Of a stretch of DNA of 20,901 bases, positions 12,001 to 15,000 are shown in pieces. The stretch's first letter is position 1; every line of letters starts with the position of its first letter. The DNA is from Chlamydiota bacterium (GTDB lineage Bacteria > Chlamydiota > Chlamydiia > Chlamydiales > SM23-39). Made by a program: the position numbers. The stretch covers positions 1 through 20,901 of the forward strand of contig JBEHXF010000036.1 of NCBI GenBank assembly GCA_048498835.1, read 5' to 3'.

Positions 12001-15000
12001 GCATTTTATCGGGCGCTGTTTCTAACCGATCTGTGGCTAAATAGCTCCTAGTGACAAAACTCGTTTTGTAATCGCTCGGAAGATATTCGGTTTCAAAGGC
12101 GCCGCCCCATCCCGTTCGCCAGCGATACTCGACTCTTCCGTACATCGCAAAGTCTTTCCAAGAGTAAAACTGATAGCGAATCATCGCTCTTGGCCCCTGT
12201 CCTTTATCCCAGTTCACGCTATAGCGGAAGATCGGCTCTTTAAATTTCCTCAAATTTACCTTAAAAGAGGGGAGCCACATCGCAGGAATTTGAAAGATGC
12301 GAAAGCGAACTCGATTTGCTTCAACCAAGTCTCCTTTTTTGACATTGACCCGATAGGCGTGGATGTCCCAGGTGCTTTCGGCATTTTCGCAGGTCGTGAT
12401 AAAGGCATTGGTGACTTTGTAATTTCCGTCGGGTTGAAGTTCAATCTCGTCGCCGCCGACGTACCAAATTGAGGAGAAGGTTTTTCCCTCATAAATCACA
12501 CCCGATCTTGTTTCGAAATCGTATTCGAGTTTTCGTCCGACATAAATCCTTCCCTTATATTGGATGAGGAGATCTCCTTCCGCATCAATTTTGTGGACGC
12601 CCTCTTTTCTTATATACTCGATCTTGCGGGCTTGAATGCGGATGTCTTGATTGCGGATGATTCCGCCCTGTGTCGTATACAATACGCCATTTTTATACGT
12701 TGGATTTCTCAGATCGACCATCATCTCTGGCGTTGGCATGGGAGTGCAGACAGGCTTTAATTCTGCAGCCAGGAGCGAGAGTGGGAGTAGGCAAAGTAGA
12801 AATCGCATGGTGCGATTGTAAAAGAGCGGCGCGTAATAGAAAAGAGGAGTCTCGTGTGCAATTCACCACAGAGGAGACAAAGAAGAAAAGAGAAATAACA
12901 AGGATCCGCACGAAACGCGCGGGCAGGATCGCCGCAAAGCGGCGACAGGATAAAAATTCACCACAGAGATAGACAACCACAGAGGCGGGGAGACCCCGCA
13001 CCCCAAAGAGAAGTAGTTCCTTTTGCTGCGCAAAAACAAGGAGGCTCTGAGTGGTGCGGAGTGCATCCCTCCACTATCCTGTCGCCGTTTCGGCGATCCT
13101 GCCCGGCGCTTCGCCGGATCTTTGTTCCTTCTCTTTTTTTGGGGTGCGGGGCTTCCCCGCCTCTGTGGTGGTCTATCTCTGTGGTGAAATTCTCTTCTTT
13201 GTGTCCTCTGTGATGAACCGCCCACGATCGCTTGTTATTCGGTGGCTTTCATGAGAAGGCCCATGAGTGCGTAGCGATTGAGGGGATTGCCGTATTGGAT
13301 CGCTTCGAGGAGGAAGGCGATGCTCTTTTCATCACGGCGGGACGCGATGGAGACGAATGAATCGATGAGGAGTTTGGATGTTTCCTCGGGAGAGAGTGAG
13401 TAGTCGGCTTGGTCCATCCGGAATTTCCACGGGAGAAGGGGGCGGAGGCGGATGAGTTCAGCTTCTTTTTGGTGCATGACCCATCGGGCGACGTGTTCTT
13501 CGTGCGGACCTTCTTCTTTGAGGCGATAGAGCGAGAGGTGGCAGTAGTCGCGGATGAGGGGGGAGTTCATTTTGGTGGAACCTTCTCGGAGGACCTGTTT
13601 GGCTTTATCGGTCTGGAGGTTTTCGAGGAGGGAGATGAGAGATGGGACGAGATCGTTTTGTTGGCGGTGGAAGAGGAGGCGGGAGAGGTGGATGAAGTCG
13701 TCTTCCGGTAGGTGGATCGACTCGCGGAGGAGATGTTCGCGAATGGCGAGGGAATAGGAGAGGTCGATGGTGGGATCTTTTGCGCGGAGTTCGGCGGAGG
13801 GAACTGCTTTGAGCGCGGTGAGAGAGCGGCCGATCGAACCATAGGGCTGGAAGGCGAGATTGCGGGCGTCGTCGAAGAGGATGTCCATGAGGATGGGCAG
13901 ACAGCGTGGGTCGCGGTGTTGAAGGAGGGCAGCGGCGGCGTTTGTGCGGATTTGAAGGTCGGTTGACTGGACCAGTTCGGCAAGGAGCGGCTCAGTACCA
14001 GAGATAAAGCCGAGAGCGGCGATGGCGAAGACGTTTTTCTTGCGCGCGAGCTCTTCGATATTGGGGATGTAAGAGCGATCGCCGAGTTGAAGCATGCAGA
14101 GACACGCTGCGAGGCGAACGGTGTCGGTAGAAGAAGTTGTGTGGCGTTTGATTTTCGGAATCATGGAGGTGTCTTTGAGCGCGCCAATGGCAAAAAGGGT
14201 TGCTTCGAGTTCCGCGATGTGGGAATGAGAAAGGCGTTTTCTGAGGAGGGGAAGGAAATCATCACGGCCGAGGCGGGCGACTTGGAGAATGGATTCGATG
14301 CGGACATTGAGATCGGGATCTTCAATCAGGCGGCGAAGTGTTTGGGTTGCGTCATGTGTGCCGATGAGTGCGAAAAGGGATGGGAAGAAGGGTTTGTAGA
14401 CAGGAGGGAGGCGAAACATGAGGCCCTCAATTTGGCCTACAGCGTGAGGGTGTTTGCGAGCGGAGAGATAGTAGGCGGCTTCCATGCGGGTGGAGAGAAA
14501 GTCGGAGCTCATAGCGATGTTGAGGAGGTCGTCGGTTCGGTCATCATCGATTTTGGAGATAAAGTGGAGAGAAAGGAGTTGGGTTTGAGGATCGGGGTGG
14601 GTGATCCCTTTTTCGAGAATTTCCAGCGAATTGCTTGAGCCAGAGAGCCCTGCGCCGAAGAGGGTGATCATAAAGGTTTGGTGATCTTCACTCTGAATCC
14701 CTTTCTGGAGGAGGGTTAGGCCCATTTGTTGGAGCATCTCAAAGTCATGCCGCCCTGTGAGAGAAGCGTATTGGCGATAGCGCTCAATCGATTCTTCAAT
14801 CTTATTTTGCTGCATGAGAAACAGCGCTTGGAGTTTTGTCTCGGAAGGAGAGACGGCCGCTAGGAGCGGAATTGGAAGAGCTAGACAGACTTGAAGAAAT
14901 CCCATAGATCGATCCCCGCTTTGAGCAACAGGCGCCGCAGTGTTTGAAGAGGCAGCCCCATAACGTTGTAATAGCACCCCTCGATTCTTTTGACAATCAA

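Follow-up and report, generated by a model that had tools for sequence, protein, structure and literature searches.

Previous studies suggested that REP, BIME and REPIN elements occur in extragenic space as inverted doublets and mosaics, and that the same repeat also brackets a single-copy nuclease gene (sections on these elements in PMC3116915, PMC3337134, PMC3333891 and PMC3733652). Bacterial MITEs such as Correia, ERIC, RUP and RPE carry terminal inverted repeats (PMC2229807, in the part that describes them), and 23S rRNA intervening sequences are fold-back elements with a small 23S_rRNA_IVP (S23p) ORF (PMC4990558, likewise in part). As for Chlamydiota, generic palindromes are merely counted in three Chlamydia genomes in the portion of PMC12306157 that deals with them, and the widespread GxxExxY (PDDEXK_3) protein family appears in a table row of PMC3424549 as of function unknown. 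Neither a link between GxxExxY genes and repeat arms nor repeats of the kind reported herein were found for Chlamydiota in the main texts of the literature searched; supplementary annotation tables could name the family.

We followed up a repeat in a 20,901-nucleotide stretch of DNA (contig C36, hereafter the window) from a Chlamydiota bacterium of the SM23-39 group, whose genome is a 97%-complete bin of 88 contigs. The evidence points to most repeats of this genome being gene-less, nested leftovers of inverted arms, an undescribed kind of selfish DNA. With a probability of roughly 0.6, they are non-autonomous offspring of one-gene nuclease cassettes, with a GxxExxY nuclease acting in trans as the most likely driver.

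Both the repeat system and the composite copy in the window, as described in the genome-wide survey's note, are real. Tiling with 26 module HMMs, with thresholds set above the best score on the locally shuffled genome, gave 163 loci, and removal of 10 single weak hits inside genes left 153. These cover 24,846 bp, or 10.6% of the 235,247 intergenic bp by our own gene calls, so that the earlier figure of a tenth (10.8%) holds. Positions 12811-13260, used as a blastn query, matched 138 pieces genome-wide (self-matches included), and the self-blast depth at the locus was 39. The absence of an Rfam family was likewise borne out, with no match at the gathering score and only chance-level matches below it. 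The description as GC-rich hairpins fits 79 of the 153 loci (the GC family, 56% GC), but AT-richer loci are about as numerous. A "~320-bp unit" listed among the modules is half of a separate 500-700-bp palindrome, which our probe detected in 15 of 103 genomes, versus 30 of 102 with the note's different probe.

The repeats also sit at assembly breaks, as had been stated: 21 of 176 contig ends have a repeat locus within 60 bp, compared with 1.7% of random 60-bp windows. Such enrichment at the ends of 88 contigs, along with low-quality N runs inside palindromes of relatives, would suit mosaics that arose as chimeras when simpler repeats of a metagenome bin were assembled. We consider this extremely improbable. 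Among copies of module A, 38 of 39 differ, the gene pair that flanks the window copy is kept in two congeners (G012 and G013), and G036 likewise has a cargo gene between nested arms of two types. Moreover, the inward orientation described below is not expected of chimeras. Such elements account for the breaks in these assemblies.

The features of the window are collected in the table. The window copy had been credited with ~150-bp inverted arms. Modules O (38 nt), A (about 65) and B+H (61) do each have an inverted mate, but the arms are not colinear: the left one reads O-A-B-H1, the right one O-B-H1-A-H2. Because the arm orders differ, A and B+H cannot pair simultaneously. The left module A is the arm type of the GAT-unit GxxExxY clade, with the same grammar as in the arms of the cassette on contig C2 and of loci L069 and L072. 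Elsewhere, C palindromes enclose a 60-260-bp core, and a deletion series runs from C52 through the start of the window and C66 to the fused centre of the window copy. The window copy is a mosaic of cassette arms with the core deleted. A 120-codon ORF across the element (12863-13225, minus strand) had no Pfam or NCBIfam match and was treated as spurious.

Table. Repeat modules and neighbouring genes in the window
Feature	Position	Strand	Remarks
Outer left arm O, CACAGAG/CAAAG-type units	12852..12889	+	Inverted pair I2 with 13190-13227, 38 nt, 84%; paired in fold
Module A, inward; three AGGAT-type units with two side hairpins between	12889..12951	+	HMM tiling
Module B, inward; two CACAGAG units; arm of C60-type GxxExxY cassette	12951..12984	+
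Hairpin H1, inner ornament of B arms	12985..13006	+	Also in arms of L002, L045, L074
Fused centre, two C palindromes collapsed into one; palindrome 13021-13035	13007..13048	.	Deletion series
Hairpin H2, inward	13051..13074	-
Module A, second copy, inward; side hairpins unlike left copy	13076..13134	-
Hairpin H1, inward	13139..13160	-
Module B, inward	13161..13193	-	Inverted pair I1
Outer right arm O	13190..13227	-	Ends 7 bp from HEAT-repeat gene stop codon
HEAT-repeat gene; element behind its stop codon	13235..14977	-	Pfam HEAT_2
Downstream gene, CT351-family / LptD-like outer-membrane protein	10733..12808	-	Match below cut-off
Second GC-family composite (H2, C, core, C, H1, B, A), cut by contig start	3..367	.
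AT-family composite, CACAGAG-type arms K and G inward, within MITE-type T ends	3148..3322	.
AT-family doublet, facing K arms	18781..18915	.	Absent from that spacer in G012, G013, G014

A preference for the space behind genes, also claimed earlier, was clear. Repeat loci occupy 58 of 283 convergent spacers (20.5%), 53 of 1168 tandem spacers and 14 of 289 divergent spacers (4.8%; convergent versus divergent, Fisher p 1e-8), and a stop codon lies within 30 bp of a locus edge in 101 of the 153. Four terminator-like sites were found around the window locus, where 0.4 were expected; its fold is very stable (z -16, as DNA and as RNA alike), and side hairpins covary, with two-sided changes in 7 of 15 pairs. 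All this would be in keeping with old arms that the host has kept as terminators or mRNA stabilisers and that spread by gene conversion, with selection rather than targeting giving the 3'-end bias. This appears decidedly improbable in view of what orthologous spacers contain. The spacer beside the HEAT-repeat gene is 46 bp and empty in G012 and is occupied by an unrelated arm type in G013; at C8:22938, other arm types are found in G014 and G015 and an empty spacer in G016; at C15:8476, G014 and G015 again carry other types. One of the congeners' spacers measures just 2 bp. Different arm types have thus settled in these spacers in congeners, independently of the present genome. In addition, one-way loci in tandem spacers run along transcription in 14 cases and against it in 8, the D junction has 33 matches in this genome versus 1 in 102 relatives, and the loops of most side hairpins have 3 bases.

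Returning to nuclease cassettes as the source of the repeats, the orientation of the modules is informative. An arm module is present in 132 of the 153 loci, and two or more arm families are mixed in 49. By the orientation that cassettes define, 38 loci point inward, none outward and 32 one way. The modules had been called shuffled; given this strict inward orientation, they are not freely shuffled. Nor did the statement that no partner was seen survive, as the modules are the inverted arms of GxxExxY cassettes, three of them in this genome, and of four-helix-bundle cassettes in relatives. All three GxxExxY genes of the genome lie between inverted arms, namely module E (contig C4), B+H1 (C60) and an A-type arm (C2); each cassette is single-copy, one is broken by a stop, and two genes are intact. 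Among family GxxExxY loci with both flanks, an inverted match with a score of at least 20 was found in 53 of 89 and a direct match in 2; the former count is a floor, because some members of the AGGAT clade have an ORF whose end runs into the right arm. HMM matches on GxxExxY flanks (own flanks included) numbered 3 for A, 12 for B, 8 for E, 3 for G, 6 for H1, 3 for J, 4 for K and 4 for L2. They always point to the gene, and none occurred on shuffled flanks. That the note's "second module" is so similar across genera is explained in the same way, since it is the arm of a cassette common to several genera.

GxxExxY is present in 94 of 300 sampled Chlamydiota genomes, and gene-less doublets of facing arms are common in relatives; G044, G082 and G084 have A or B+H matches, yet fall outside the set with a GxxExxY match. 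In the genome itself, no cassette was found for D, J, K, G, F or M, and no GxxExxY remnant inside the repeat cores. In relatives, two loci (L306 and L307) seemed by eye to hold remnants of a gene flanked by B+H arms; these went undetected by tblastn and were left out of the counts. The C4 protein as sole query found no viral relative. The module A pattern had no match in metagenome contigs, and module B had none in viral contigs and one gene-less doublet in metagenome contigs. Of 19 four-helix-bundle loci of relatives, 5 have arms that match module D, on both sides in L093 and L096; no four-helix-bundle gene was found in the genome, where the D arms are gene-less. The text of PMC4679880, searched by term for a tie between heptamer repeats and four-helix-bundle genes, did not show one. 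No parent was found for the C palindrome and its core: 102 family genomes gave only short C-hairpin matches, 300 phylum genomes none, and a GTDB scan two matches, apparently chance hits in coding DNA. The U palindrome is likewise without a parent found.

The two intact proteins score 152.5 and 135.7 bits against TIGR04256 (cut-off 35) and also match PF13366. The catalytic E, D and E-x-K residues are invariant in 30 aligned rows, both intact genes among them. No solved structure was found by sequence; a predicted protein model has a restriction-endonuclease-like fold, with Cas4 SSO0001 at Z 9.2 (rmsd 4.3, 100 aligned) and Hjc at Z 7.6 (rmsd 3.1, 85 aligned), the latter being a match that many PD-(D/E)XK folds reach, at Z below 8. 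Judging from this model, the partner proteins have a predicted PD-(D/E)XK fold with catalytic residues, and their resemblance to Hjc is middling. In a quick tree of 136 columns, 9 of 9 ACGAT and 25 of 26 CAGGAT rows fall in one clade (support 100), and arm-word labels change 23 times, compared with 53.9 when shuffled (0 of 200 shuffles as low). Simple co-inheritance of arm and gene would also produce this tracking.

Facing A arms differ in their side hairpins in 4 of 4 own loci and 4 of 4 loci of relatives (2 genomes); in B+H pairs the hairpins differ in 8 of 11 own inner pairs and 5 of 11 loci of relatives. This asymmetry is not general, and perfect palindromes may have been lost or badly assembled, as N runs in L277 and L308 suggest. 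As the unit words are common but the side hairpins unlike, facing arms fold into four-way junctions. For example, one doublet in G095 pairs an arm of the C2-cassette type with a module A arm and folds as two such junctions (z -9). Homogenisation of the facing arms of a locus was considered and rejected, as they are not more alike than copies elsewhere (A, 0.825 versus 0.884, n=7; B, 0.91 versus 0.90, n=4). Gene-carrying arms differ in this respect, with a median of 0.93 across the stretch that aligns.

The following course of events appears to fit these data best. The parent would be the small cassette seen here and in relatives, in which a GxxExxY PD-(D/E)XK or four-helix-bundle gene stands between two inward arms, and these arms are made up of two to three short unit words plus GC-rich side hairpins. 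Once the gene is lost, its two facing arms remain as a hairpin doublet. In this lineage at least six arm families are represented by doublets at the same sites, each in or beside an earlier palindrome, and they probably accumulated there one after another. Recombination between loci and deletions at shared palindromes may then have yielded mosaics such as the window copy, and the blocks of several modules found copied between loci might reflect transposition or gene conversion. The GxxExxY nuclease may recognise its own arm type by binding the unit words, and cut the folded-back or cruciform element, the unlike side hairpins forming its four-way junctions; repair would copy the element into hairpin- or A/T-rich sites right behind stop codons, where it would be tolerated and may act as a two-way terminator. 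For the AT-rich copies with T ends, movement was probably due to transposons of the IS5 family and their MITEs.

A broader and more speculative proposal, which we hold only tentatively, is that the GxxExxY family represents a class of mobilising enzyme not described before. As minimal PD-(D/E)XK nucleases, these proteins would read the short unit words, resolve the four-way-junction ladders of hetero-armed doublets and insert them at existing hairpin centres (terminators, MITEs, other doublets and IS ends), so that nuclease clades, four-helix-bundle cassettes and IS5 elements would form one common, nested repeat ecosystem, seen in a burst in the present genome.

The part played by known transposons must be set against this. 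The 177-bp N element (copies 97-98% identical, the youngest family) and the T ends have terminal inverted repeats, no ORF and dispersed near-identical copies, as MITEs do; N/T-type ends number 65 in G017 and 16 in G016. T or N ends close many AT-family loci, and TTA or TAA precedes 30 of 41 such ends. A candidate duplication, of 3 bp or of TA, is suggested by TTA on both sides at C2, C5, C29, C83 and two G017 copies; the flanks mismatch at C11, C13 and C36:3150. Transport of whole cassettes by IS5-family elements is demonstrated in two other Chlamydiota genomes. In G316, those of the 12 GxxExxY matches that were aligned sit in a 1,564-bp IS5-family element (DDE_Tnp_1_5), which we take to be of the IS903 subgroup. 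Its two terminal repeats are each followed immediately, on the inner side, by an arm, and of 8 copies looked at, 7 show a 9-bp duplication. In G010, locus L030 is bounded by T-like terminal repeats of 19 bp, with one and the same triplet at either side, and contains a complete armed cassette and a 23-residue remnant that resembles the start of an IS5 transposase. IS5-type genes contain or adjoin three more loci (L054, L071 and L075). No T end lies beside 13 DDE loci of five relatives.

One may therefore ask whether IS5-family DDE transposases and their MITEs do all the moving, with GxxExxY genes and arms as cargo and mosaics made by ordinary recombination. We regard this as unlikely, though it is the strongest of the alternatives. 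The 79 GC-family loci, window copy included, have no T/N shell, no common terminal repeat and no target-site duplication or flanking direct repeat, and their outermost module varies (A, B, D, E or H). No DDE_Tnp_1 or IS903-like gene was found in the 97%-complete genome, where a DUF4096 match is a stand-alone 107-residue gene. Among GxxExxY loci scanned for such ends, both T-like ends occur at L030 only. The inward rule and the conserved unit words would also be left unexplained. Against descent from nuclease cassettes with a nuclease in trans, which we still prefer, stand the lack of a target-site duplication in GC-family composites, the fact that copies are never identical except in two contig-end overlaps, the scarcity of cassettes in the genome itself (each single, and none for several modules), and the fact that the only recent burst of gene-carrying copies seen, that of G316, is IS-borne.

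The genome is a clean test set, with two intact genes of different clades, each with its own arm word, besides some 150 targets that lack a gene. Should the proteins prove to act on these arms, they would constitute a second bacterial partnership of repeat and nuclease beside REPIN-RAYT, with a different chemistry. A tenth of the intergenic DNA is given to such elements in a small genome of an intracellular lineage. As a caution, such hairpins should not be read as regulatory RNAs of the adjoining gene.

The repeats had been said to behave like REP/BIME or MITE elements. They are indeed modular, non-coding and biased to 3' ends, and the N element and T ends are of MITE type, though a minor component, but RAYT is not the partner. 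That a RAYT (Y1) transposase is at work here on REP/BIME or REPIN elements is very improbable, even with doublets and mosaics in extragenic space, an H1 hairpin that resembles the Pseudomonas fluorescens GII REP core (Table 1 of PMC3337134) and E. coli BIMEs that likewise pair two unlike REPs (in the relevant part of PMC3333891). No Y1_Tnp gene was found in the genome, an arm or H module occurs at 0 of 30 Y1 loci of relatives, GTAG is absent before H1 in the consensus, and the arms flank GxxExxY and four-helix-bundle genes instead.

As far as the sections of the four papers cited above describe them, REPIN-RAYT and REP/BIME systems share with the present one extragenic inverted doublets and mosaics, a nuclease gene in single copy that the same repeat brackets, more than one repeat group with a separate gene for each, clusters formed by insertion into existing elements and, in BIME-1 and BIME-2, unlike partners within a doublet. 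They differ in that the partner here is a PD-(D/E)XK or four-helix-bundle protein, not a HUH/Y1 enzyme, that the arms are arrays of 5-7-base words plus side hairpins, not one GTAG-tagged imperfect palindrome, and that different arm families are mixed in one element; the GTAG/CGTC tag at the palindrome foot is absent from our seeds and hairpin lists, which as output show perfect stems with 3-4-base loops. Bacterial MITEs, by the account in that part of PMC2229807, resemble the N element and T ends in their terminal inverted repeats and TTA/TAA flanks. The GC-family composites, unlike them, lack a common terminal repeat or duplication, and T-bounded copies hold cassette arms in place of a MITE interior, with no matching transposase found in the genome. 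The described 23S rRNA intervening sequences recall module D, the arm of such S23p genes in relatives, but the cassettes are found outside rRNA, with protein genes on either side or a tRNA gene next to them. Finally, the elements of G316 and G010 are like IS5-family elements with passenger genes (family by Pfam) in their terminal repeats, duplications and GxxExxY passenger; what sets them apart is that the passenger comes with arms of its own, which adjoin the two terminal repeats on their inner side.

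Twenty-six module seeds were cut by coordinates, HMMs were built from their genomic copies, and the genome was tiled with thresholds set above the best score on shuffled sequence. With 10 single weak matches within genes excluded, 153 repeat loci were obtained, amounting to 24,846 bp, or 10.6% of the intergenic DNA by our own gene calls. Of 283 convergent spacers, 58 contain a repeat locus, as do 53 of 1168 tandem and 14 of 289 divergent ones; in 43 of the 53 tandem spacers, the repeats lie closer to the upstream stop than to the downstream start, and they are present at 21 of 176 contig ends, compared with 1.7% by chance. 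These data demonstrate the repeats and their positional bias, and bear out in kind the counts of the genome-wide survey's note. A ~320-bp unit assigned there to the same system is indeed repeated, but forms part of a distinct long palindrome that has no gene at its centre. These GC-rich palindromes of 500-700 bp (L240:280-960, L248, L261, L246, L247, and L263) are nearly perfect in two genomes (G096 and G092), with matches in 15 of 103 genomes. Long low-depth repeats at C22:1949-4577, C3:5503-10897, C16:36677-38851, and C15:22359-24574 (the last inside called genes) are unrelated to the hairpin system.

The window copy is a 375-bp palindromic mosaic that fills the spacer between a HEAT-repeat gene and a CT351-like gene. 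Its fold has a z of -16, it has more than 100 partial matches across the rest of the genome, and an Rfam scan of it gave no match reaching threshold. From either side its modules (letters denote arms, H1 and H2 hairpins) point inward, in the order O, A, B, H1, fused centre, H2, A, H1, B, O. Its B-H1-C-core-C-H2 block, in which C palindromes enclose a core, recurs at three other loci; these form a deletion series with the window copy as the end member, its two C palindromes collapsed into one. C palindromes with a 60-260-bp core lie at window 29-246 and on C52, C42, C40, C13, and C75, and none was found outside this genome among the genomes searched. At window 3345-9952, a RiPP cluster (NHLP-leader precursor, YcaO cyclodehydratase, SagB dehydrogenase, MNIO (DUF692) enzyme, DUF2063 partner, and MFS transporter) combines azole and MNIO machinery in a chlamydial genome.

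An arm module is present at 132 of the 153 loci, and 49 loci combine two to five arm families. When only modules oriented by reference to a cassette (a small gene between inverted arms) are counted, 38 loci are oriented inward, none outward, and 32 one way, which demonstrates an inward rule. Facing arms within one locus are no more similar to each other than to copies elsewhere, and loci share blocks of up to 360 bp at 94-96%, indicating that the mosaics were copied and recombined. A or B+H is present in 37 of 102 relatives' genomes, mostly as simple doublets (gene-less facing arms) or single arms, and the D junction is matched 33 times in this genome vs once in the 102 relatives; thus, the mosaic burst is lineage-specific, while doublets are not. 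Among the relatives' matches listed (91 further ones unlisted), none spans the A-B junction.

No partner gene had been seen for the repeats. This is contradicted by a PF13366 search, which revealed three GxxExxY (PD-(D/E)XK nuclease) genes in this genome, intact on C4 and C2 and with one internal stop on C60, all enclosed by inverted arms that match modules of the repeats.

Genes beside the window copy and GxxExxY cassettes of this genome
Feature	Position	Strand	Remark
HEAT-repeat gene	13235-14977	minus	flanks window copy
CT351-family protein gene, 691 residues	10733-12808	minus	CT351 and weak LptD matches, both below cut-off
C4 GxxExxY cassette			arm is module E
C60 GxxExxY cassette			arm is module B plus hairpin H1
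C2 GxxExxY cassette			arm with module-A grammar: three AGGAT-type words, two hairpins between them

GxxExxY genes occur in 49 of the 103 genomes of the family and in 94 of 300 from the phylum (0 of 29 in one family). Ninety-two loci were compared: 3 of this genome, 29 from the output of the family search, and 60 fetched, with most listed fragments left out; minus two partial genes and one locus lacking a right flank, inverted arms were found at 53 of 89, and a direct match at 2. Module HMM matches on these flanks point toward the gene, and none occurred on shuffled flanks. By eye, cassettes for B, E, F, G/K, J, M, A, and L are present in relatives. Four-helix-bundle cassettes have module D as their arm (carried by 5 of the 19 loci scanned); their gene occurs in 15 of 103 genomes and was not found when searched for in this one. 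The repeats are demonstrated to be cassette arms, with a probability of about 0.9. In G036 (L298:1470-2250), the gene bracketed by nested arms of two word types encodes an AAA_28 ATPase rather than a nuclease, so other cargo can be carried by arms. L106 and L107, two armless loci with weak four-helix-bundle matches followed by AAC-rich stretches, may resemble the Avd gene and template repeat found in diversity-generating retroelements.

Unit words of the arms are conserved; side hairpins vary with pairing preserved, with two-sided changes at 7 of 15 pairs across 12 arms. Facing A arms carry unlike hairpins at 4/4 own and 4/4 relative loci. For H, 8 of 11 pairs in this genome and 5 of 11 in relatives are asymmetric, counts that may be inflated if perfect palindromes are lost or badly assembled. 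GCGAAGC, a sequence that would form a very stable DNA mini-hairpin, is 19 times as dense in repeats as in genes. A G095 doublet of a C2-type and a module-A arm folds into two four-way junctions. The C4 protein model (pLDDT 90.9) has a PD-(D/E)XK fold nearest to Cas4 and restriction enzymes, Hjc being one of many middling matches. Movement of the arms by GxxExxY via four-way junctions is a tentative and rather doubtful suggestion. In a quick tree, the arm word matches the protein clade, though co-inheritance alone would also predict this; about 13 genes (L076-L090), mostly armless and mostly one per genome, form a clade that is possibly domesticated.

It seems somewhat probable that GxxExxY proteins bind their arms and move them, helped by IS/MITE ends. 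AT-rich loci frequently have T ends as their borders; T is the terminal repeat of N, a MITE of 150-177 bp (65 ends in G017, 16 in G016). The main counter-evidence to an arm-moving nuclease is that IS elements can themselves spread cassettes. G316 (L383-L394) holds about a dozen copies of a 1,564-bp IS5-family element with near-identical GxxExxY genes and arms directly inside both terminal repeats, 7 of 8 printed copies being flanked by 9-bp duplications; in G010, a GxxExxY cassette is enclosed by T-like ends. IS carriage is thus demonstrated in relatives, and the sole recent burst seen, that in G316, is IS-borne. On the other hand, searches of this genome found no such IS5-family transposase, and its GC-family mosaics are without IS ends. 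A stand-alone DUF4096 gene of 107 residues (L174:1483-1806, C2:63884-64207) showed neither a transposase catalytic part nor IS ends.

Congeners are about 70% identical, too distant for fixing element edges or duplications, and recurrently fill the same spacers. The window-copy spacer is empty (46 bp) in G012, contains in G013 a palindrome that is unrelated, lacks a gene, and has arms of the four-helix-bundle type, and has two extra genes, one of which we take by eye to be HicB-like, in G015 (L146, G015:C3:22636-23944); in G014 and G016, the gene order or context is different. The spacer behind the gene at C8:22935 measures 2 bp in G016 and contains other doublets in G014 and G015. Behind the gene at C15:8700, CACAGAG doublets occur in G014 and G015, an AGGAT-type remnant (by eye) in G013, and nothing in G012. 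The elements at window 18781, C15:3704, and C15:4847 are absent from the congeners shown. In 23 of 53 cassettes, a count raised by variant unit words that the pattern missed, the inverted match reaches at least 15 bp outward past the first detected unit word, which would be consistent with insertion into older palindromes.

A GxxExxY-arm link was not found in the portions of the literature searched, supplements aside (including PMC3424549, PMC4679880, PMC2229807, PMC12306157, and 10.1101/2021.01.26.428298). The proposed likeness to REP/BIME elements holds in part. No arm module was found at 30 Y1-transposase loci scanned in relatives, and the repeats do not belong to the REPIN/BIME-RAYT systems; nonetheless, as far as the consulted parts of PMC3116915, PMC3333891, PMC3733652, and PMC3337134 describe those systems, the repeat system works in a similar way.
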